Assembly (NCBI GenBank): GCA_963760795.1
Contig: CAVXEP010000019.1
Span: forward strand, 224,001 to 288,000
Direction of reading: 5' to 3'
Origin: an uncultured delta proteobacterium
GTDB taxonomy: Bacteria; Desulfobacterota; Binatia; UBA9968
DNA length: 64,000 nucleotides
The number at the start of each line of letters is the position of its first letter. The first letter of the stretch is position 1. The position numbers were made by a program, and so were the translations under genes. Below, one piece after another: positions 5,292 to 19,749 of the stretch. Under the pieces are notes generated by a model. That model was not told the origin of the DNA. It worked only from the letters and a program-made list of their open reading frames with translations, and did no database searches.

Positions 5292-5464
5292 AAATAATGG
5301 ATACTGGAGAATGCAAAACTGACAACGCCGGTCGGAGTTAATTGCGTGAGTAGCTTTTGGCGTTGAGCTGGTCTAATTCTTTTTCTACGGCGTGGCGCGG
5401 GTAGAAAGCGTTTCGTTGCTGTGGTTAACTATTGCGCCGCTCTGCATTTTGCCGCCACCGACCC

Positions 5465-6888
5465 GTGATTTCACCGTCATCGACTCATAACAGCGACACC
5501 ATTCGCCGTCTGGTTCTGATCAATTCCATCTTGGGCGTGACCATCGCGGGAGTTTCCGCGCGGGTCTTCATGATCTCGGTGCCGACGTTGGCAACGGCGC
5601 TCAATACCGACATGTTGGGGATTTCCTGGGCGCTGATTGTCTATCAAATGGCCGGTATCGGCCTGGGCGTGATCTGCGGCCGGCTGGGAGATATTCACGG
5701 CCACCACAAGACCTACGGGTCGGTATGTGGGTGATGGCGGTGGCTTCACTGCTCTGCGGCTTTTCACAAAATATCTGGCAGTTGATTCTGTTCCGCTTTC
5801 TCCAGGGTATCGGCGGCGCGATAATTCAATCTTCCGGACGGACGCTGGCTTTTAAAGCGATGCCCGCCGGCTCCGAAGGAAAAGCCCAAGGGTTAATGGC
5901 GATGTCCCATCAATTGGGCTTCTTTATCGGCCCACCTATCGGCGGGCTGATCATCGATCTGGTGCATTGGCGCGGGGTTTTTTTTCTACTGTTTGTCCCG
6001 AGTCTGGCGGGCGCGGCTTTGTGCCTGGTGACGGGGCGCGCCGCGGCCGCCGAACCGGCGCGCCAGCAGGCGATCGATTACCGCGGCGCCTTGCTGCTCT
6101 TCGCCTTGACGGTACTCGCGACCTTGTTGCTCGATCAGAAAGTCGCCCAGGCGGTGGGCGCCGGCAGCGAGCTGTTGTTGGGCTCGGTATTTCTCGCCGC
6201 GCTGTGGCTTTTTCTCGGCCACGAAAAGCGCGCGCCAAGTCCGCTGATCAATCTGTCGATGTTCTCGGTTAAAGTGTTCGGCTATGGTTCGGTGGGGCTG
6301 TTGTTCTGCAATATCAACCAGGGCCTCTCGACCTTCATCACGCCGTTTTACCTACAGCAGGTGCTCAACTTATCGCCGACGTTCATGGGGGCGATTTTTC
6401 TCGTGCCGTCGTTGTTGAGCATGGTACTGTCGCCGGTGAGCGGTGCTCTGACCGACCGCATTGGTCCACGCTTGCTGTTGATTGTCGGCGCGCTGGTGCT
6501 GATGGCGAGCTTTATCATCGGCGCCTACCTGCGCAGCGATTCCCACTGGCTGCTGCCGACGATTTTATTAGCTCTTACCGGTATCGGTTCGGCGTTTTTC
6601 AATACGGCATCGCAGGCGGCGATGATCCGCGCCTTGCCCAAGGAAAATTGGGGTACGGCGATCGGCATCATCAACGGGGTTTTCGGTCTCGGCCATATGC
6701 TCGGCATTTCCTTGAGCGGCATCTTCTTGACCCTGGCGTTTCGCTACTACACCGGCGACGCCGCCGCGACGCCCGACCCAGCGAATAGCACTTTGTTCGT
6801 TGCGGCGATGAATTTGACCTACCTCTTTGCTTTGGCACTCGCCGTCATCCCGTTGTTTACCTCGACTAAGATTAAGCGCAGTGAATAG
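5465..6888 (+). CDS. MFS transporter (DHA2/EmrB-like), frameshifted near 5725
   Basis: GRLGDIHG motif A in ORF 5432-5734 continues as LILFRFLQGIGGA...GPPIGGLI...WRGVF in ORF 5725-6888. Confidence 0.82.
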
Positions 6889-8470: not shown

Positions 8471-9124
8471 TCAATTTAGACGGGACAGATAGTGGGCGAG
8501 GTCTTGAAAGTCGGCGTCGGTGAGCGGATGGAGCGCGTCGGCCATGGACGGGTCGTAGGCGCGCCGGCTATTGTTCTTGTACTCGCGTAGGGCTTTAAGC
8601 AAGTAATCTTCTCGTTGGCCGGCCAGACGCGGCGCGTTGTCCTCACCGGAAAAATCTGGCTTATGACAGAAGTTGCAACGATGTTGCTGGATCAAGGCGC
8701 GGGCCTTTTCGGCGCGGGCGGGATCGAGCGCATTCGAGCTAGCTATCGGCGCAGGCAGTTTGGCGATCATCGCCGCGGCGCGGCGCAGCTCGTCGTCGCT
8801 CCAGCCTTGCATCATACCGGTCATGGGCTCGAGGTTACGCATTTTTTCCCGGAACATCAGCAGCTGGACGGAAAGAAAAAAAACCGGTTGGGCGCCAAGG
8901 GACGGCACTTCGGGGATGAGCGACTGGCCATTTTCGCCATGGCAGGCGAGGCAAGGCGCGAGCCGTTCGTCGACGGTCGCTGCAGGTGCCGTGACCGCCG
9001 CGACGAGTAGAAGAAACGCCGCGGCCAGAGCGCGAACGATATTGGCTTGCAATGGAGATTGGCCAGCGTGGAGCCGCCGCGGTGGTGACGCCGCGGCGGG
9101 CCGTGAGTTCTTAACGACTGGCAA
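8471..9124 (-). CDS. Di-haem cytochrome c4-type protein (start uncertain, possibly ~9052)
   Basis: Two haem motifs CLACH and CNFCH, PRLAGQREDYL, and a signal-peptide-like segment. Confidence 0.9.
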   Translation of the reverse strand: MPVVKNSRPAAASPPRRLHAGQSPLQANIVRALAAAFLLLVAAVTAPAATVDERLAPCLACHGENGQSLIPEVPSLGAQPVFFLSVQLLMFREKMRNLEPMTGMMQGWSDDELRRAAAMIAKLPAPIASSNALDPARAEKARALIQQHRCNFCHKPDFSGEDNAPRLAGQREDYLLKALREYKNNSRRAYDPSMADALHPLTDADFQDLAHYLSRLN

Positions 9125-10370
9125 GCTGCGGGCTGTAGGTGACGCGGTAAATCGCGCCGGCGAAATCGTCGGAGATCAACATCGAACCGTCTTTCATGAC
9201 GTGGACGTCGACCGGCCGGCCCCAGTATTCGTTGTTGTTAAGAAAGCCTGTGATAAATGGCTGCACGGATTTTACCGTGCCGTCGACGTTCAACTTCGCG
9301 ACAACGATATCGCCGCCGATTTTCTTGGTGCGGTTCCACGAGCCATGGCGGGCGATGAAGAGGGCGTTGCGGTATTCGCGGGGAAACATGGTGCCGGTGT
9401 AGAAGCGCAGGCCGAGGGCGGCGCTGTGCGGCCCCATCAACGCCACCGGCGGGGTGAATTCGTCGCAGGAGCGGCCCCAGCCCATCTCGCGGTCGGTGAA
9501 GTTGCCTTGGTGACAGTAGGGAAAGCCGAAGTGCTGGCCGACTTTGGTGACGCGATTCAATTCATCTTCCGGCAAATCTTCCGACAGCCAGTCGCGGCCG
9601 TTATCGGTGAAGTAGAAATCTTTGGTGATCGGATGCCAGTCGAAGCCGACGGAGTTGCGCACGCCGCGGGCGAACACTTCTGCGCCGCTGCCGTCAAGAT
9701 TGATGCGGCGGATCTGGGCATTTTCCGCGGGCGGTTCGCAGATATTACACGGCGCGCCGACGTTTATGTAGAGCTTGTTGTCCGGACCAATGGCGATGAA
9801 CTTCCAACCATGGGACTGGTGATTGGGCAGGTCGCTGTAGATGACCACCGGCTTGCCGGGATTGTCGAGGTTGTCTTCGATTTTCTCCAGCTTGGAAATT
9901 TTCGTGCCCTCGCCGATGTAGAGCGTGCCGTTGTGATAGGCGAGGCCGTTGGGGCGGTCCAGGCCGGAGGCGATGACCTTGGCTTCGCGCTTGCCGCTGC
10001 GCTCGACGACGGCGTAGACTTTGTCAAGTTGGCGGTTGCTGACGAACACCGTGCCTTTATCGCCGATGCGCAACGAGCGGGCATTGGCGATGCCGCTGAT
10101 GTAAACCTCGAGCTTGAAGCCCTTGGGCATCTTCAGCTGGCCGATCTGTAATTTCTCCGCCGGTGTGGCAAACGGCGGCTGCGGTACACCGCGCAAAGTT
10201 TTCGCGACCTCCGCATTGGGAATGTCTGGACGGCCGGGCACCGTCGTCGGCGCCGGCTGAACATTGGGCGCAGGTTTTTCTTGGGACAGTGAGATTGCCG
10301 GCGCACCCATCGACAAAACGCCGAGGATGGCGGCGACGGTCGTCCGCAACAAGTTCGGGAATGAGGTCAT
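9111..10370 (-). CDS. PQQ-dependent sugar/sorbosone dehydrogenase family protein
   Basis: GPDNKLYINVGAPCNIC, GVRNSVGFDWHP, TDNGRD, FGFPYCH, HGSWNR, GRPVDV; SD GAGGAGG before the ATG at 10370. Confidence 0.9.
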   Translation of the reverse strand: MTSFPNLLRTTVAAILGVLSMGAPAISLSQEKPAPNVQPAPTTVPGRPDIPNAEVAKTLRGVPQPPFATPAEKLQIGQLKMPKGFKLEVYISGIANARSLRIGDKGTVFVSNRQLDKVYAVVERSGKREAKVIASGLDRPNGLAYHNGTLYIGEGTKISKLEKIEDNLDNPGKPVVIYSDLPNHQSHGWKFIAIGPDNKLYINVGAPCNICEPPAENAQIRRINLDGSGAEVFARGVRNSVGFDWHPITKDFYFTDNGRDWLSEDLPEDELNRVTKVGQHFGFPYCHQGNFTDREMGWGRSCDEFTPPVALMGPHSAALGLRFYTGTMFPREYRNALFIARHGSWNRTKKIGGDIVVAKLNVDGTVKSVQPFITGFLNNNEYWGRPVDVHVMKDGSMLISDDFAGAIYRVTYSPQLASR

Positions 10371-11116: not shown

Positions 11117-12097
11117 CTAGATCGCCGCCGGCTGGTCCAGCTCAAAACCGAGATCGCGGATCATCTGGTGCGCGTCGGTGGCGTCTTGGCCGGGCGTGGT
11201 CAAGTAGCCGTTGACAAACATCGAGTTGGCTGGATAGAGGCTTAGCGGCTGCAGCGAGCGCAAGTTTACTTCGCGGCCGCCGGCGACGCGGATCTCTTTG
11301 GTCGGATTGACGAAGCGGAACAGGCACAGCGTCTTCAAGCAGCGCTGCGGCGTCAATTCGCGTTTCTCCTCGAAGGGCGTCTTGGGAATTGAATGCAAAA
11401 AATTTACCGGGATCGAGTCGATGCCCATGGCACGCAGCGTCATCGCCAGGTTGATGATGTCGTCGTCGCTTTCGCCCATGCCGATGATGCCGCCGGAGCA
11501 GGTGCCGATGCCGGCGCTCTTGACGCTCTCAATCGTCGCCACCCGATCGTCGAAGGAATGGGTGGTGACGATGTCGGCGTGGTGTTCGCGGCTGGTATTT
11601 AAATTATGATTGACCCGGCCGACGCCGGCGGCGGCGAGCTTCCGGGTCTTGTCGTCATTCATCAAGCCCAGCGAGCAGCAGACGTTCATGCCGGTCTGGG
11701 CGCGAATCTCGCGCACCGCCGCGGTGATGTCGTCGATTTCTTTGTTGGTCGGGCCGCGGCCGCTGTTGACGATGCAAAAGCGTACGGCGCCGGCTGCTTT
11801 GGCCTGGCGCGCGCTTTCGACCAGCTTGTCCTTGGACATGAAAGTGTACTTGTCGACGGGGGCTTCGGAGACCGAGGACTGCGAACAGTAGTGGCAGTCT
11901 TCCGGGCACAGGCCGCTCTTGGCGTTCTGCAAGACATGGATCTGCACGCGCTTGCCGTAGTAGTGGTGGCGCACTTTGAAGGCGGCGCTCAAGATTTCCG
12001 GTAGCTGTTCGTCCGGTGCGTTCAATACTTCACGCAGTTCCTCCCGCTCGGGTAGAATGCCTTGCAATGCTTTGTCCGCCAGTCGCTGAAAATCCAT
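11117..12097 (-). CDS. bioB: Biotin synthase (radical SAM)
   Basis: NAKSGLCPEDCHYCSQS, NHNLNTS, CSGGIIGMGE, SIPVNFL, IRVAGGRE, GYLTT; SD GGAGGA before the ATG at 12097. Confidence 0.96.
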   Translation of the reverse strand: MDFQRLADKALQGILPEREELREVLNAPDEQLPEILSAAFKVRHHYYGKRVQIHVLQNAKSGLCPEDCHYCSQSSVSEAPVDKYTFMSKDKLVESARQAKAAGAVRFCIVNSGRGPTNKEIDDITAAVREIRAQTGMNVCCSLGLMNDDKTRKLAAAGVGRVNHNLNTSREHHADIVTTHSFDDRVATIESVKSAGIGTCSGGIIGMGESDDDIINLAMTLRAMGIDSIPVNFLHSIPKTPFEEKRELTPQRCLKTLCLFRFVNPTKEIRVAGGREVNLRSLQPLSLYPANSMFVNGYLTTPGQDATDAHQMIRDLGFELDQPAAI

Positions 12098-12322
12098 GCC
12101 GTCCTCCAAAACTAGCAAGTTTCTAGCATGCGAGGTGTAGCCATGCAATCTGCGGGTGGCTGGAAGGTAGTAATACTTCTGTAGATTTCGCTACTTAGGT
12201 GCGATCTTCAGCGTGCGGTTAAAAGACCCGGCAGTTAACCACATGCTCGTCAGTTTGCGCGGTAAGCCATTGATCGGCATCCGTTCGATTCAAAAGCATA
12301 GCTGACAACTATGCGAATTTTT

Positions 12323-12745
12323 TTATAAGTCGGTCATCACCTGGTGATAGTGGCCGAGAACGAATATGAACCCGGCCAAGACGAAGTGAAAAATGATTGG
12401 AATGACGTCGCCGAACCAGCGCATCTCGGGATGGAGAATCATGGTCAGAGCATAGCGCAGGATCATCAGTCCGGCATAGGCGCCGGCAAATTTTATCAGG
12501 AATTCCGCCCAGTGGGGGCGCACGACGGCGAAGGTGCCGGTGCCGCGCCAGACTTCACCGGTGATTTTCACCATCAGCATCAACATGAGAAGTTGGATGA
12601 TCAACAGTGAGGAGTAGGGAATCACGCCGGAAAACCATTGCTTCATAGCCGGTAGCCAGGAAATGCCGACAAAGGCGACCAGCGCTTGTCCCAAGACCCG
12701 GCACGCGAACAAAAACGTTATTAGGGCTAGGAGCGGTCCGTGCAT
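12323..12745 (-). CDS. Hypothetical membrane protein (~4 TM)
   Basis: Hydrophobic 140-aa ORF with W.SG.IPY and IPIIFHFVLA, starting 7 nt after the GH3 stop. Confidence 0.7.
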   Translation of the reverse strand: MHGPLLALITFLFACRVLGQALVAFVGISWLPAMKQWFSGVIPYSSLLIIQLLMLMLMVKITGEVWRGTGTFAVVRPHWAEFLIKFAGAYAGLMILRYALTMILHPEMRWFGDVIPIIFHFVLAGFIFVLGHYHQVMTDL

Positions 12746-12752
12746 TCTCTTG

Positions 12753-14437
12753 CTACTTGCACCCGTGCGTTGAGGCCCCGCTGAGTTCAATCACGCGTGT
12801 AATTTCGTCGGTTGCTTGCGGTGTCGTGCTGAGCAGTTGGGCTTTGAACTGAGTGTCGCGAGCGCCGCGGTGGAGTGCGGCGCTCGCCTGACGTTCGTAC
12901 CAGCCGGGCGGCATCAGGCAAAGCACCGGCGGCTTGAGACGCTGGGATGCGCGTTTCTGAGCGTATTCGATATTGAGCTGGGCAAGGTTTTGATCCAGCG
13001 CGGCGAGCAATTGCCTGAGCGCGTCGTCGCTTGGATTCGCGCCGTCGAATTCGATTGGGAATGAGTAGCGCGATTCTTCCGCGTCGGCGATTCCGCGGTA
13101 GTGTCGCGGCGTGATACCGGCGAGCGCTTGCGCCAGTTCCATCGCCTGGATGACCTGATTGACGTGGAGTTTCTCGCCGGTGATGTTGGTGAAATCGCGG
13201 CCTTTGCGGACAAATTCGAGCAGCGGGGTTTGCCGAAAGAATCCCGCGACGCGCACCACATCGTTGATATCGTAGCGGTACAAACCGCCTGGCGTGGTGA
13301 GGATGAGATAATAACTCTCGCCGGTTTTCAATTCCGCGCAGGTCAGCGTTGCCGGTTGTGGACTGTCGATTTCCGCTTCGGGAATGAACTCGTAAAAATT
13401 GCCGTTCAAATCAGGGATGCCGGCGAACCCGGAGTCGGATATCGGCAAGGTCATCTGCGCCTCGCTCGCCATATAGCCTAAATCGCGCACCGGCATGGAC
13501 TCGCCGAACCAGCGGTGCAGTTCATTCAAGCGCACACCGACCGTGCCGCCTTTCCAGCAACCGATCAATTGCAGTTGTGGCCAGTAATCCATGGGACGCA
13601 GGGCGCCGTATTGGTTCGCCAGCCGTTCGAGCTCGAGCCGCGCGGGCGGGATTTTTCTCGAGTTGCGCTGCGAGCTTTTGCCGCACCGCGCCGGGAATAT
13701 GCCAGCGCTCGCTGATGGTGCCGTCGCGAATGTCGCGGATGATTTCAGATTTATTATTGTCGGCGATTTCGACCAGGCGCAGAATCGTGCTCGGATTGGG
13801 CGTGCCGAGAAACGAGATTGGCTGCGCCAACGCCAACACGCATGATCAGGTAGTACTTGGCGGCGAAGTCTTTCACTTCGGCGACCTCGTAGGGTAGGGC
13901 GAAGGCGTTCTGAATCCAGCGTGGACTGCTCTGATAAATCAAGCCTGAGGCGGCGCCGTAGGGAATATTGCCGGCGGTTTTCCCTTCTTGGGCGGAACTG
14001 ACGACGCCGAGCATTTTGCCGTCGAACAAGCCGGGATGATCGAGGTTGGCGCGGTAGTACCAAAGGCGCGTAAGTCGACGGTGGTTGGCGCGGCTGTTCT
14101 CGGTCACCGGGATCAGCTTGGGTGCGCCGGTGCTGCCGCTGGTCAGCGTGAACATCTCGACTGGCGCTTCGGTCAAGACCTGAGCTTCGCCATTCTCGGC
14201 ACGCTCGACATAGGGGCGAAGCCGTTCATAGTCGCCAATGGCGACCCGCTCGCGGTAGTCCGCCAAGCTGCGAATCGCCGCGAAGCCATGATCCTTGCCA
14301 AAGGCGGTTCCGCGGTTGCGCTGAATGATGTCGAGCAATAGCCGGTTTTGCACCGTTGCCGGAACGGCGGACAATTTTTCCCAGCTGCTCCAAAGACGGC
14401 CGGTGACGAAGGCCGCTGCTTTGACGATCACGCTCAT
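12753..14437 (-). CDS. GH3 auxin-responsive-promoter family acyl-adenylate ligase, frameshifted twice
   Basis: GH3 motifs FTLTSGSTGAPKLIP, GYMASE, LYRYDINDVV, TGEKL are spread over ORFs 13754-14437, 13522-13839 and 12753-14063; shifts at about 13840 and 13640. Confidence 0.87.
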
Positions 14438-14441
14438 GGGT

Positions 14442-16308
14442 TTAACGCCGCAATTCGATTTTCTCGACGGTGAGTCGTTCGAGGGCTTCTTCCTTGACGG
14501 TGACGCTCAAGCCGCGGCTTTTCAGCAGTGGCGCGCGGCCGCCGAGGCCGAAGGCGACGTTGTCGAACGTGATGTCTTCCGACAACAGCCAGGTGCCGAA
14601 GGATCCTTCAGCACCGGCTAACTCGGGCACATGGGCCGCGAAAGTTCGGCCGGCGGCCGATAGGATGCCGGTCTCGCCGACCTGAGCGCCCACTTGGATT
14701 TTGATGCCGGCTTCCTGCGCAAGTTTAGCAATCGCCAGACTGCCGGTGATGCCGCCGTTTTTTGACAGACGAATGTTAAATAGATCGCAGGCTTTTTCTG
14801 CGATCAAGCGGCGCGCCTGCTCGACGGTGACCAGCGATTCGTCGGCCATGACCGGGATGGCGCACTGGGCGCGCACTTGTTTCATGCCATCGATATCGTC
14901 AGCCGCCACTGGCTGTTCGATTACGGCGAGTTTAAACAGCGCCAGCTGCTTCAAATGTTCAACTGCTTGCGCCGCGTTCCAAGCGCCGTTGGCGTCGGCG
15001 CGCAGTTCAACTTTGCTGCCCACCGCTTGACGCACCGCGTTCAGGCGCGCGGCGTCATCTGGCGTGCCGACTTTGATCTTGATCTGTTTGAGGCCCAATT
15101 GCGCCATGCGCTTGGCCAACGCCGCGGCGTCCTTCGGCGCATCGGCGGAGATCACGCCGCTGTAGACGACCTCGAAACGCGCCGGCGGAAGATAGTCCGC
15201 CAAAGCGCTATGATCCGTGCGCAGGTTCCAGTCGAGCAGCGCCAACTCGACGGCGCAAAACGCCGCATTCCAGGCAGTGACGCCATTGTTTGATTGCGGA
15301 AGTCCGCGTCCAGTCCGGCTGCAGCGACTGCAACTGCTCGATGGTCTGCCAGCCGGGGAAAAACGTTTGTTGAAAGATCCTTGGCGCAAGGAAATCGCGG
15401 ATCCGCGCGATCATCGATTCAGTGGTCTCGCCGGTGACGTAGACGCGCGGTAACCCTTCGCCAAAGCCGCTACGGCTGTCGCTGCCGGTGATTTTTACAA
15501 TTACGGCGTCGCTTTCGTCGCGGCTATGCAGCGCGTGGCTAAAGGCTTGGTGAAACGGAATGCGCAGGCGATAGATGGTGAGCGCGTCGACGCGCTGGGG
15601 CCCGACTGCTTTGCTGCGGGTTTTTAGCTTCGAGCTCGGCGGAAAATAATGGCGGCAGAAAAGCTGGTCGCCGAGAGTGAAGCCAGCGATCTGGTCGAAT
15701 AGCGAGTCGGAGATCTGATGAAACTCGCTGTAGTCTTGGATCACCGTGATCGCTTCTTCGGCGTGGCGGATATCGACTTCGGAATGAAGCTCGAACCAGC
15801 GTAGGGCGGCGCCCGCAATGGCATAGTTATCACACAGCGCGTTGGCCAGTTCGCTGGAGCAGCGCGACAGCATGAACTCGAAGCTCATGGTTTCGAGCAG
15901 CACCGACAGGCAGAGCTCGCGCAACGTCGCCACCGGCACGCGGGTGGCGCAAACCAGCGCGACGCGCCGGCGCGCGTCGGCGATCAGCTGATCGATTTCA
16001 TCGTTAGCGAAGCCGATGGCGCGAGCCATTTCCAAGAGCAGCTGGGAGTGGGGCGGCTCATGTTCCGACCGGCCCATTTCTTCGAGCAGGTTCTCTTTCA
16101 ACATCTCCGCGGCCGACGACGGCAGCGCGGCGAAACAAAGCGCGACGATATGCGATGACAGATAATGGGTGCGAAAGATATTGCGCAAAAACTCGTAGGC
16201 GGTCAGCATGCCCGCGGCGCCGCCGACGAGGTCGCGATATTCGCGGGCTTGCGTGAAATCGTTGGTGGCTTGCTCGAAGTATTTAACGATCTGTTGCGCG
16301 GCGACCAT
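14442..16308 (-). CDS. Fusion of heme-oxygenase-like diiron oxidase (HDO/CADD-like) and enolase-superfamily (muconate cycloisomerase-like) enzyme; one frameshift near 15300
   Basis: N-terminal ENLLEEMG..PPH, LLE...FE, WFELHSEVDIRH. Same frame continues into the enolase capping domain (LRIPFHQAFSHA, GFGEGLPRVYVTGET). Barrel motifs KIKVG, ADANGAW, IEQP, MADES follow the shift. SD GGAGGT precedes the ATG at 16308. Confidence 0.82.
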
Positions 16309-16356
16309 GGTCACCTCCGATGCTGGTTGGGCAGCGGTTGAAGCTCGATGGCCATT

Positions 16357-19300
16357 CTAAGCGATTGCTTTTTCCAAGGCCATCGCTTTGACTCTTTTCA
16401 GATCGGCTTTGCCTGAGCCGAGGATGGGAATCTCGTCGATGGCGTGGAGATCTTCGCGCTTGGGAACCCACAGCTTGGGCAATGCGGATTTGTTGAGCTG
16501 GTCCCATAGCTCCTCGCGGCTGACGCCGTTCTTGGCGTAGAAAACCACCAGCCGCTCACCGCGCTGTTCGTCCGGGATCGCAGTCACCACCGATGCCGGG
16601 CTGCCGAGTAAGTCGTTGATCATCTCTTCGATCTTCATGTGCGGCACCATCTCGCCGCCGATCTTGCTGAAGCGCGACAAGCGGTCGGTGATGGCGATGA
16701 AGCCGTCCTCATCGATGGTCGCGATATCGCCAGTGACATACCAGCCTTGGCGCATCGCTTGATCGGTTAGGTTCTGCTGATTCAAGTAGCCGAGCATGAC
16801 GTTAGGTCCTTTGACGAGCAGCAGCCCTTCTTCGCCTGGGCCGAGGGTCTCGCCGCCATCGGGATCGATCACCTTGGTCGCGACGCCTGGGAGCGGATGG
16901 CCGACCGTGCCGGGCTTGTGGCCGGTCTGTTTTTCCTTGTCGTGGACAACATCGGGTGTGTTGACCGCGACCACGGGGGAGAGCTCCGTGCAGCCGTAGC
17001 CTTCGAGGAGGGTGATGCCGAATTTATCCTGATAACCCTTGGCGATCTGTGCGCGCAGCTTTTCCGCGCCGGAGATGACGTAGCGCAGCGAGGCGAACTG
17101 TTCCTTGGTGCAGCGGCGCCAGTAGCTGACGTAGAAGGTCGGCGTGCTGATCAATAATGACGCGCGGTATTTCTCGACGGTCTCACCAATAGTCTTGGCG
17201 TCGGTGGGATTGGGGTGATAGACCGCGCCGAAGCCGGTCAGCAGCGGCAACCAGATGGTCGCGGTGAAGCCGAAGGAGTGAAATAGCGGCAAGATGCCCA
17301 TGATACGATCCTGCGGCGTGAATTGAATCACCTGGCCGATCGCCTCGACGTTGGAAATAATGTTGTGGTGCGACAGCATCACGCCTTTGGGCGTGCCGGT
17401 GCTGCCGCTGGAAAATATGATCGTGGCGAGATCGTTGGAGCGCTGTTGTTTGCGCGCGCGGCGGTTGAGCCAACGCGCCGGCGTAACATAGGCTTTGACC
17501 GCGATGGCGAGTTTTCGCGCGCCGGTAAACGTCTGGCGGATCTCTTCAACAAAAACCATGCCGTCCATTTTCTCAAGATTGGCTTTGTCCAAAAACGTTC
17601 GCGAGGTGACGATGGTGGTGATCTTACATTGGGCCAGCGCCGCGGCCGTGGATTCTTTGCCGCCGGTGAAGTTCAAATTTACCGGCACTTTGCCCGCTAG
17701 CAGGGTGGCGATATTGACCAGCGCGCCGCCGACGCTGGCTGGCAGGATCACGCCAATCATCGACTGGCCGGCGCAATGGCTCCTCAGCCAGCGGCAAAAA
17801 AGCAGGCTGCCGATGAGCGCCTTGCCATAGGTGAGCTCTGTGCCGGTGGTGTCGGCCATGCAGAACCTCGACCAGTGGCGCTTGGCCATCTCGACGAACT
17901 TGGCGTGGAGCAGATCGCCGGGAAGCCGACGGTACTCCACCGCCTCGCTTTCCAGCTCTAAGATCGCGTTGCGCACCTGCACCACGGAGGAGGTTGGCGG
18001 CAGCGGCGCGCCAAACGACACCGTGACCGAGTAGGGGAATTGCATCGGCCACTTCCAAAAGAACTTACCGTCTTTGAAACTAAAGATGCTGCCCCAGAGC
18101 TGGTCCAAGTGCACCGGCACGATCGGAATATCCGAGCCCTCGACGATTTTCTCGAAGCCGCGCTTGAACGGCAGCAGCCGGCCGGTACGGCTGATCGCGC
18201 CCTCAGCGAAGATACACACCACATGGCCGTTTTCGAGTTCGTTTCTCGCCCGCTTGAGCGACTGGACGATGTCGCGCCGATTGTTCGCCGACACCGGGAT
18301 CGCATGCATGAGGCGGAAAAACCAGTTGAGCGATTTGAGATCGTAATACTCCCGATGCAGCATGAAGCGGACGAAGCGCGGCTGCGGCGCGCCGACCAAG
18401 AGCGCATCGACGAAGGAGACATGGTTGCAGACCAAGAGCGCCGGCCCCTGGAGCGGGATATTTTGTCCACCGACCACCCGGATGCGATAAAGCGTATTGG
18501 TCAACAGCCAGACGACGAAGCGGACGAAATAATCGGGCAGCAGGTACAAGATCGCCAGCGTGCCGGCGAGGGTAAACAGTCCGATCAGCAAGATGATGGT
18601 GTCGGGGGATAGTTGGAGCGGCGTTTTCAAGAACCAATGTAGCGCCGCTGCCAGGGCGATGCCGATGGTGTTCAGGAAATTATTGGTCGCGATCAATTGG
18701 CCCTTTTCCTCTTTGCCGCTACGTTGTTGCAATAGCGCGTTGAGCGGCACGGCGAACAGGCCGGCGGCAAAGCCGAGCAGCATCAAGGCCAGTGCAGTGT
18801 GCGGATAGGACGGTGCCGCCCAGGCGACCAGGGCAAGGCAAATGCCCATGCCCACCGAGCCGAGGGGTACCAAGCCCAATTCGATATGGTCGCCGGAGAG
18901 TTTGCCGGCGGCGAGACTGCCGATGCCGATGCCGATCGCCAAGAAAGTCCCCAATAGGCCGATGTGAAACTCATCGAGCTGCAACAGCTCCTTGCCGAAA
19001 AAAAGAATATTGATATTGACCAGCGCGCCGAGAAACCAAAAGTAAGAGATGCCGAGGACGGTAAACCACAGCGCCCGTTCGCGTCGCAGCCGGCGCAGGC
19101 CATCGGTAATTTCGCCGAAGGGGTTCAAGTTGAGCAGCTTGGTCGACCCCGAAGCCGGCACCCTGGCGATGCGCAGGCTGGTAAGATAACCGGCGATGGC
19201 GATGGCGATCATGATCAGGCCGATGCGCGGCAACTGGTTTTTCCAAACCGAGAAGATCGCGCTGCCCACCGACGTCCCCAGAATGATCGCCATGAAGGTG

Positions 19301-19749
19301 CTCATCTCCAACAAGCCGTTGCCGCGCGACAGTTCTTTATCCGGCAGCATTTCCGGCAAGATGCCGTACTTGGCGGGGCTGAAGAAGGCCGAGTGCAGGC
19401 CCATCAAGAAAACCGCCGCGAGCATGGGCCGGATGTCCGCGAAGTAGAATGACACCAGGACGAAAATCATGATGGCGATTTCGGCCGCTTTCACCGCCAC
19501 CAGGATTGTCCGCTTGCTATAGACGTCGGCGAGATGGCCGGCATAACCGGAAAACAGCGCCGACGGCAGGATAAATAGGATGGCGATCAGTTCGACGTAG
19601 AAATCGCCGCCGTGCCCGGCCAAGCTCAGGGCGACGAACGAGACCACGATTTTTAAGAAATTGTCATTGAATGCACCTAAGAACTGGGTGCAGAAGAAGG
19701 CAAGGAATCCCGGCTGTTTGAGCGTGACGGTGTAGTTGCCGTTATTCAT
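16357..19749 (-). CDS. aas: Acyl-[ACP]--phospholipid O-acyltransferase / acyl-ACP synthetase with N-terminal LplT-like MFS domain
   Basis: TQFLGAFNDN (MFS), NHVSFVD and FAEGAISRTG (PlsC), FSSGSTGTPKG and EGYGCTE (adenylation); 1130 aa. Confidence 0.93.
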   Translation of the reverse strand: MNNGNYTVTLKQPGFLAFFCTQFLGAFNDNFLKIVVSFVALSLAGHGGDFYVELIAILFILPSALFSGYAGHLADVYSKRTILVAVKAAEIAIMIFVLVSFYFADIRPMLAAVFLMGLHSAFFSPAKYGILPEMLPDKELSRGNGLLEMSTFMAIILGTSVGSAIFSVWKNQLPRIGLIMIAIAIAGYLTSLRIARVPASGSTKLLNLNPFGEITDGLRRLRRERALWFTVLGISYFWFLGALVNINILFFGKELLQLDEFHIGLLGTFLAIGIGIGSLAAGKLSGDHIELGLVPLGSVGMGICLALVAWAAPSYPHTALALMLLGFAAGLFAVPLNALLQQRSGKEEKGQLIATNNFLNTIGIALAAALHWFLKTPLQLSPDTIILLIGLFTLAGTLAILYLLPDYFVRFVVWLLTNTLYRIRVVGGQNIPLQGPALLVCNHVSFVDALLVGAPQPRFVRFMLHREYYDLKSLNWFFRLMHAIPVSANNRRDIVQSLKRARNELENGHVVCIFAEGAISRTGRLLPFKRGFEKIVEGSDIPIVPVHLDQLWGSIFSFKDGKFFWKWPMQFPYSVTVSFGAPLPPTSSVVQVRNAILELESEAVEYRRLPGDLLHAKFVEMAKRHWSRFCMADTTGTELTYGKALIGSLLFCRWLRSHCAGQSMIGVILPASVGGALVNIATLLAGKVPVNLNFTGGKESTAAALAQCKITTIVTSRTFLDKANLEKMDGMVFVEEIRQTFTGARKLAIAVKAYVTPARWLNRRARKQQRSNDLATIIFSSGSTGTPKGVMLSHHNIISNVEAIGQVIQFTPQDRIMGILPLFHSFGFTATIWLPLLTGFGAVYHPNPTDAKTIGETVEKYRASLLISTPTFYVSYWRRCTKEQFASLRYVISGAEKLRAQIAKGYQDKFGITLLEGYGCTELSPVVAVNTPDVVHDKEKQTGHKPGTVGHPLPGVATKVIDPDGGETLGPGEEGLLLVKGPNVMLGYLNQQNLTDQAMRQGWYVTGDIATIDEDGFIAITDRLSRFSKIGGEMVPHMKIEEMINDLLGSPASVVTAIPDEQRGERLVVFYAKNGVSREELWDQLNKSALPKLWVPKREDLHAIDEIPILGSGKADLKRVKAMALEKAIA

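Follow-up and report, generated by a model that had tools for sequence, protein, structure and literature searches.

A putative heme-oxygenase-like dimetal oxidase domain fused to an MLE-subgroup enolase domain and encoded next to a GH3 ligase in uncultured soil bacteria

Heme-oxygenase-like dimetal oxidases and oxygenases (HDOs) bind two metals (Fe/Fe or Fe/Mn) through three histidines and three carboxylates and use them to activate O2, and CADD (CT610, 4-aminobenzoate synthase; PDB 1rcw and 8va9), HrmI, FlcD, UndA and SznF share the Pfam family PF14518 and an all-helical heme-oxygenase-like fold. Enzymes of the MLE subgroup of the enolase superfamily hold Mg2+ with an Asp/Glu/Asp triad and use two lysines in order to abstract the alpha-proton of a carboxylate substrate, and GH3 enzymes adenylate a carboxylic acid and transfer the acyl group to the amine of an amino acid. 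OlsH, the one characterised bacterial GH3, forms N-acyl-ornithine from a free fatty acid, ornithine and ATP (PMC12493201). Here we describe a gene in which an HDO domain and an enolase-superfamily domain are joined in a single reading frame and which is followed by a GH3 gene. It is located on the minus strand at 14442..16308 of a stretch of 64,000 nt (the window) from contig CAVXEP010000019.1 of assembly GCA_963760795.1, whose genome (labelled G000) comprises 6.58 Mb in 35 contigs.

With one extra base at position 15296 omitted, the gene encodes 621 amino acids plus the stop codon. Residues 1–224 (15637..16308, minus strand) form the N-terminal HDO domain, as judged by PF14518, an alignment to CADD and an AlphaFold2 (AF2) model, residues 225–237 form a basic linker of 13 residues (SSKLKTRSKAVGP..., 15598..15636, minus strand), and residues 238–621 (14442..15597, minus strand) form an enolase-superfamily domain of the MLE subgroup with capping domain and TIM barrel, assigned by Pfam and by matches to PDB entries. 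The open reading frame (ORF) at 16314..15208 on the minus strand, with its true start at ATG 16308 as in all relatives, matches PF14518 (Haem_oxygenas_2) at residues 41–195 with 58.5 bits, well above the Pfam cut-off of 28.9 bits, which the intact relative P0001 also exceeds with 55.9 bits. There is no stop between the HDO part and the N-terminal enolase sequence, and the reading passes through PPSSKLKTRSKAV. The remainder of the enolase part lies in a different frame in the ORF 15389..14442, which matches MR_MLE_C with 174 bits. For the window ORF and P0001 together the MR_MLE_C scores are 163–174 bits, and the MR_MLE_N match is marginal with 22.8 bits against a cut-off of 22. The linker is predicted with a pLDDT below 50 at residues 225–234 of the full-length model, and both its length and its sequence vary among 29 aligned sequences. 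A first-pass annotation of this DNA had proposed exactly such an in-frame architecture with a repaired length of about 620 residues, and the Pfam matches, the lack of any stop or indel between the domains and the existence of intact orthologues bear this out. Thus, the in-frame fusion of an HDO with an MLE-subgroup enolase is real, and the gene would encode a bifunctional enzyme of about 621 amino acids that, as judged from sequence, is intact in nature and broken in the assembly only by a one-base insertion.

This insertion was found by DNA alignment to a genome of the same genus (G019) and to contigs from soil metagenome runs: where the window reads TTCC, G019 reads TTC. It affects codon 338, about 100 codons into the enolase part, and since the break is well inside this part the fusion is not created by it, in agreement with the earlier statement that the sole frameshift of the gene falls within the enolase sequence. 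In Logan contigs covering 12700–16400 the base is absent from all four soil metagenome runs, which come from three studies; each run has a single contig over position 15296, and the depth with the change equals the total depth (7.55, 7.87, 4.85 and 4.22). Omitting the base gives one ORF of 621 amino acids without internal stop, of which 509 residues are identical to P0001 and which keeps every HDO ligand and every catalytic residue of the enolase part. The same four runs also lack two further one-base insertions in the neighbouring GH3 gene, at 13838 and at 13638/9, and when both are omitted an ORF of 560 amino acids results. As assembled, the GH3 gene is spread over three frames, with the ORF 13522–13839 as the middle piece.

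With three frame breaks in only 1.7 kb, this copy of the cassette could also be a decaying pseudogene, in which the three insertions are real and nothing is made, and it fits such decay that one related genome (L051) carries a deletion remnant of the cassette and that 6 of 42 genome loci are interrupted. However, all three extra bases are missing from the contigs of all four runs, which are 95–99% identical to the window and may derive from other strains, and outside the breaks there are no stops and all catalytic residues are kept. Five of the six interrupted loci belong to one assembly series with very long contigs, whereas short-read-style assemblies are intact, and because the interruptions are concentrated in this way they show the pattern of indel errors. 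We therefore infer that the frame breaks in the window are assembly errors and not gene decay, and regard the pseudogene as quite unlikely.

Other irregular loci were seen as well. At L013 (contig C48 of G019) a frame break at about 9821–9870, near the 3' end of the fusion, extends the open frame into GH3 to give 913 amino acids, and this apparent triple fusion is probably another indel error. The remnant at L051:8001-8943, between aas and bioB, joins HDO residues 120–189 directly to the C-terminal sequence of GH3 and is a deletion scar. Elsewhere in the window, a gene for a transporter of the major facilitator superfamily (MFS; 5432–6885, plus strand) has its Pfam match only from residue 194 of a 387-aa ORF whose start is overlapped by a 100-aa ORF, and it may contain a further assembly frame break.

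To take a closer look at the N-terminal domain, its ligand positions were compared with those of CADD. The pattern listed in the first-pass annotation (ENLLEE, H, E and WFELHSEVDIRH) is completely present and aligns residue for residue with the six CADD ligands: E77, H87, E144, H175, D179 and H182 correspond to CADD E81, H88, E142, H174, D178 and H181, which we take to be its metal ligands. The respective codons are 16078–16080, 16048–16050, 15877–15879, 15784–15786, 15772–15774 and 15763–15765, all on the minus strand. The profile-based alignment to CADD has an E-value of 2e-5. Identity to CADD and the other HDOs is only 15–18%, and all six residues are invariant in 29 full-length sequences that are 43–100% identical, as well as in a set of 30. 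The N-terminal domain thus appears to possess the complete set of three histidines and three carboxylates of a dimetal site. The AF2 model of the full-length protein (pLDDT 84.1, pTM 0.77, with the linker disordered at 225–234) and that of the HDO part alone (pLDDT 90, pTM 0.87, 13 helices) show the all-helical heme-oxygenase-like fold that had been suggested as a structural check. The closest fold match of the HDO model is CADD (Z 18.1, root-mean-square deviation 3.1 Å over 206 residues), followed by HrmI (Z 17.1), PqqC (Z 15.7), FlcD (Z 15.6), UndA (Z 14.0) and SznF (Z 13.9), with heme oxygenases and TenA both at a Z of about 14. From ligands and model, the domain is a putative heme-oxygenase-like dimetal (Fe/Fe or Fe/Mn) oxidase or oxygenase, and O2 chemistry is plausible for the host as its genome carries three heme-copper oxidase genes. 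When the two halves (1–232 and 240–621, with alignments) were run as separate partners in a complex prediction, the score was 0.14 against a mark of 0.32, a value that speaks neither for nor against an interface of the domains.

The N-terminal domain is not a CADD orthologue, because its score with the CADD family model TIGR04305 is 23.3 bits against a cut-off of 200 and because the position aligned with CADD Lys152 (position 154) is Leu, Ile or Met in all 29 sequences. In CADD, Lys152 lies next to the substrate Tyr27 (PMC9522330). The equivalent of Tyr27 is not conserved across the fusion family, the alignment being approximate there. The host genome is rich in related domains, with 26 PF14518 matches, 21 of them above the Pfam cut-off (for example C32:184584-185084, C32:245679-246203 and C17:81297-81674), so that HDO paralogues are greatly expanded here; the 570-aa open frame that contains one of them may represent a further fusion.

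For the C-terminal domain the lysines K410 and K412 of the KxK motif, the metal ligands D438, E464 and D489, and K516 are invariant in the 29 full-length sequences and align with the motifs of 2p88 and 1jpm. The domain belongs to the MLE subgroup of the enolase superfamily and would bind Mg2+ through D438, E464 and D489 and use K412 and K516 for proton abstraction. Its closest relative by PDB sequence and fold is the N-succinyl-Arg/Lys racemase 2p88 (E 1.2e-39, TMt 0.89, 28% identity), followed by an L-Ala-D/L-Glu epimerase and dipeptide epimerases, and all of these act at the C-alpha of N-acylated amino acids. Among the matches listed no PDB chain covers both domains, as the alignments span at most 410 columns with a TMq of at most 0.54.

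The same subfamily includes stand-alone enolases with 40% identity to the fusion enolase domain. In the window's phylum (L145–L162, with 69 of 108 ORFs of at least 140 aa scanned) they adjoin genes for LpxL-type acyltransferases in 11 of 18 loci, directly in nine of them, genes for FadL/TodX outer-membrane transporters are found in seven loci, and GAF/PAS sensor kinase or HD-GYP genes lie near them in 12. This neighbourhood looks like a lipid or lipid-signal module. One of these loci (L156:3974-6175, minus strand) encodes a protein of 734 aa in which about 500 N-terminal residues without family assignment precede MR_MLE_C.

In order to define the fusion family we searched related genomes, protein collections and metagenomes. 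Within the same genus, 13 of 25 genomes (G000 included) have a strong match, eight of them with open frames of 628–739 aa, and five aligned same-genus fusions have 621–623 aa; one of these five genomes, G004, is unpublished, and no result depends on it alone. An exhaustive HMMER search against 1.84 billion representatives gave two further full-length fused proteins, P0002 (62% identity) and P0003 (45%), together with fragments. Searching with fusion residues 1–235 only (target proteins of 341–1087 aa, E <= 1e-10) resulted in 275 protein clusters at 90% identity, mostly from soil, and nearly all of the 120 clusters listed have 620–623 aa with PF14518 and PF13378. Their source names include 'muconate cycloisomerase', 'enolase C-terminal domain-like protein' and 'L-Ala-DL-Glu epimerase-like / PQQ biosynthesis protein C'. 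The family is thus fairly common in soil metagenomes, known from uncultured bacteria only and carried under misleading automatic names.

The GTDB species-representative genomes contain 42 loci in two groups, one in an uncultured deltaproteobacterial genus and one in Dehalococcoidia. Clade 1 consists of metagenome-assembled genomes labelled delta proteobacterium, Syntrophobacter sp. SbD2 or Candidatus Binatia with an HDO part 51–100% identical, and clade 2 of Dehalococcoidia/Chloroflexota metagenome-assembled genomes with about 35% identity in the HDO part and about 50% in the enolase part. Of the genome loci 33 are fused, open and full length (614–623 aa), one is cut by a contig end, six are interrupted and two show the HDO piece only; the corresponding numbers for 80 metagenome loci are 56 (also 614–623 aa), 10, five and nine. 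One of the interrupted loci, L054, is a true split, in which a 230-aa HDO gene ending in TAG is followed after 8 nt by a 384-aa enolase gene and then by an intact GH3 gene of 550 aa, and stand-alone proteins matching the split halves are P0080 (229 aa, cluster of 21) and P0004 (384 aa, cluster of nine). In the phylogenetic tree of the enolase part, fused and split forms form one clade with a support of 98/91. As the tree does not resolve the four lineages inside this clade (the split forms and two fused clades), it cannot decide between fusion and fission. In one Dehalococcoidia genome (L035:4276-7241 and 12475-13251) the genes around the two-gene cassette encode a tyrosine integrase, a serine recombinase and an rve-type transposase, which suggests a cassette on a mobile island, in line with its presence in two phyla.

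The GH3-family acyl-acid amido synthetase gene (12753..14437, minus strand, broken by the insertions at 13838 and 13638/9) starts 4 nt after the stop of the fusion gene. Counting loci with at least 700 nt after the fusion, all 37 genome loci and 44 of the 46 metagenome loci have a GH3 gene in the first 400 nt downstream (81 of 83 in total). In all 17 Dehalococcoidia loci fusion and GH3 are the only pair always present, the next most frequent neighbour family reaching 10 of 17, and the flanks vary from integrases and a transposase (L035) to ZnuA and PNPase (L042). GH3 is therefore the only partner conserved in both phyla, and this constant neighbour, absent from the first-pass annotation, is the strongest clue to the substrate class. 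It is the single GH3 gene of the host genome and matches PF03321, PF23571 and PF23572 (GH3, GH3_M and GH3_C), all above their cut-offs. The GH3 ORFs carry TSGSTGAPK, YGAASG and GGLYRYDIND, which resemble motifs I–III as given in PMC12493201, with Glu replaced by Gly in motif II.

From the architecture, the conserved catalytic residues, the folds and the linkage to GH3 we propose a substrate class, an order of steps and a chemistry. GH3 would adenylate a carboxylic acid, for which a fatty acid or another hydrophobic acid is the most likely candidate, and join it to an amino acid to give an N-acyl amino acid. The enolase domain would then form the Mg-stabilised enolate of this conjugate, leading to epimerisation at C-alpha (L to D) or to elimination of a beta-substituent, and the HDO domain would use O2 to hydroxylate, desaturate or oxidatively decarboxylate the same molecule. 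We propose this path because the nearest solved relatives of the enolase domain work on exactly this type of substrate, an N-acyl amino acid whose alpha-carboxylate is free, and the two activities would act on one metabolite in consecutive steps since they are fused, and encoded by adjacent genes in the split form. We regard the chances of this proposal, from the amide formed by GH3 to the two reactions of the fusion protein, as evenly balanced. The first-pass annotation had suggested a sequential or channelled oxidation followed by isomerisation or elimination, in which both the order and a physical channel are conjectural. The membrane protein encoded behind GH3 (see below), the precedent of OlsH and the paralogues beside LpxL- and FadL-type genes, with further relatives fused to alpha/beta-hydrolases, give a hint that the acyl group may be a lipid.

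Several points weigh against this proposal. The enolase part is below every NCBIfam equivalog cut-off (DgcA 112 vs 400, Ala-Glu epimerase 98.5 vs 500 and 88 vs 343, OSBS 97 vs 200), its top NCBIfam match is the muconate/chloromuconate cycloisomerase model TIGR02534, again below the cut-off (130 vs 334.95), and its catalytic residues alone cannot tell a racemase from a cycloisomerase or dehydratase. GH3 is distant from OlsH (NF052613, 129 bits vs 620) and about as close to plant GH3s (JAR1, E 1.3e-30). The lipid hint comes from paralogues with 40% identity in a neighbourhood of which 69 of 108 ORFs were scanned, gene adjacency does not give the order of steps, and we know of no HDO whose substrate is an N-acyl amino acid.

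The order of the steps might be the reverse, with the HDO domain oxidising a free amino acid or acid, the enolase domain racemising or isomerising the product, and GH3 ligating it to a second molecule only afterwards. This would suit the preference of most characterised HDOs for free amino acids or free fatty acids, HDO abstracts name Trp, Lys and fatty-acid substrates, the fusion gene precedes GH3, and the adjacency of the genes fits equally well. However, the solved enzymes nearest to the enolase domain without exception require an N-acylated and not a free amino acid, and to our knowledge MLE-subgroup enzymes do not racemise free amino acids, so that we consider the reverse order improbable, if still deserving attention. 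A catabolic role appears clearly less likely than that. Here the HDO domain would open or desaturate an aromatic or unsaturated acid, or its amino-acid conjugate, and the enolase domain would be a muconate-type cycloisomerase or a dehydratase, as might be expected from its best NCBIfam match to the muconate/chloromuconate cycloisomerase subfamily, from the many members annotated as 'muconate cycloisomerase' at source, from muconate lactonizing enzymes among the fold matches (TMt 0.87–0.90) and from plant GH3s that, by their PDB names, conjugate aromatic acids. But the TIGR02534 score is far below its cut-off, further genes for the beta-ketoadipate pathway or for ring cleavage are not among the recurrent neighbours of the cassette in the two phyla, and both structure and sequence give racemases and epimerases as the best matches.

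We give very little credence to a non-redox N-terminal domain, be it a self-sacrificing 4-aminobenzoate synthase like CADD, a cofactor-less protein like PqqC or TenA, or a regulatory or structural module for the enolase. CADD is indeed the closest solved relative by sequence and fold, PqqC (Z 15.7) and TenA (about 14) match the fold, and 'PQQ biosynthesis protein C' is the name that some sources give to relatives. However, the domain has six invariant metal ligands, which cofactor-less PqqC/TenA proteins do not need, the Lys152 of CADD is replaced and the TIGR04305 score is low (see above), and no folate or PQQ genes recur near the cassette. If the N-acyl amino acid proposal is taken one step further, the cassette would make a new class of bacterial lipoamino acids, N-acyl amino acids that are D-configured or dehydro at C-alpha and also oxidised with O2, with the enolate-forming domain handing its product to the dimetal oxygenase domain within one protein, and would move between phyla of uncultured soil bacteria. 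We offer this extended version only tentatively and think it rather doubtful; if true, it would give the HDOs their first N-acyl amino acid substrate and would, for the first time, place a racemase of the enolase superfamily in the synthesis of a membrane lipid or lipid signal.

The other genes around the fusion lie on the same strand in the order LplT-Aas, 48 nt, fusion, 4 nt, GH3, membrane protein and bioB. The membrane protein (12323..12790, minus strand) has 155 aa, about four predicted transmembrane helices and no Pfam or NCBIfam match. Of the 19 clade-1 genome loci, 18 have it 3' of GH3, and in three of 17 Dehalococcoidia loci it lies close by on the opposite strand; it is usually the third gene of the cassette. 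As it shows conserved motifs with only one conserved histidine, a function as di-heme cytochrome b electron donor was rejected. The upstream gene (16357..19749, minus strand) encodes an LplT-Aas type acyl-[ACP]--phospholipid O-acyltransferase of 1130 aa with MFS, PlsC-like acyltransferase and acyl-ACP synthetase domains (Pfam; PRK08633, 1396.8 bits vs 1221) and is a neighbour in clade 1 only. It was rejected as a pathway member because a score above the equivalog cut-off marks it as a housekeeping lysophospholipid acyltransferase and because it does not adjoin the Dehalococcoidia cassettes; we treat it as synteny, and a role in O-acylation remains conceivable. The biotin synthase gene bioB (11117..12148, minus strand; Pfam Radical_SAM and BATS) lies downstream in most clade-1 loci and in this clade only, which is probably plain synteny. 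A biotin- or pimelate-type role was rejected, as Dehalococcoidia cassettes have no bioB within 8 kb, as aas and bioB are adjacent in L020 with the cassette elsewhere, and as the cassette is mostly deleted between them in L051. Further away, the window carries a 492-aa ORF (8673–10148, plus strand) with no Pfam family at E <= 1e-5.

The HDO, enolase and GH3 families are well known, and the literature searched describes neither the fusion nor the cassette. In searches that covered literature outside subscription papers and the InterPro architecture tables, no publication was found that combines an HDO with the enolase superfamily or mandelate racemase, and among the papers listed for HDO and diiron together with GH3 none contains GH3; a 2026 review on HDOs does not mention fusion, fused, enolase, racemase or epimerase. 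The unusual oxidative chemistry known from HDOs is growing fast, and the enolase superfamily serves as a textbook example of how function is predicted from sequence. A natural HDO-enolase fusion with GH3 offers a concrete and testable three-gene, three-protein system for reconstitution, and its product could reveal a new kind of modified N-acyl amino acid, be it a lipid or a signal, would add a substrate class to the HDOs and would explain bacterial GH3 proteins outside the ornithine-lipid pathway.

Compared with the described systems, CADD shares the E/H/E/H/D/H ligand set at the aligned positions with the HDO domain of the fusion, but CADD, HrmI, FlcD, UndA and SznF all occur without an enolase domain, the extra domain of SznF being a cupin. 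The racemase 2p88 from Bacillus cereus and the L-Ala-D/L-Glu epimerase YkfB (1jpm/1tkk) belong to the same MLE subgroup, have the same KxK, D, E, D and K residues and align with the enolase domain over its full length (E about 1e-39, TMt 0.87–0.89), yet they stand alone with about 360 aa, whereas the fusion enolase domain is 28% identical and forms its own HDO-partnered clade. Related enolase domains (37–40% identity) are also found at the C-terminus of P0072, P0092 and P0100 with 683–711 aa, whose N-terminal partner is an alpha/beta-hydrolase (Hydrolase_4) with a serine hydrolase fold instead of an HDO; among 201 genomes of the window's phylum no such fusion was found but only stand-alone enolases. 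The terms 'racemase' and 'D-ornithine' do not occur in the OlsH/OlsI paper (PMC12493201). In the OlsH/OlsI pathway of Singulisphaera acidiphila, a bacterial GH3 ligase is encoded in an operon with lipid-modifying enzymes much like here, and while the partner of OlsH is an alpha/beta-hydrolase O-acyltransferase or a methyltransferase, the GH3 of this cassette is paired with the HDO-enolase fusion.

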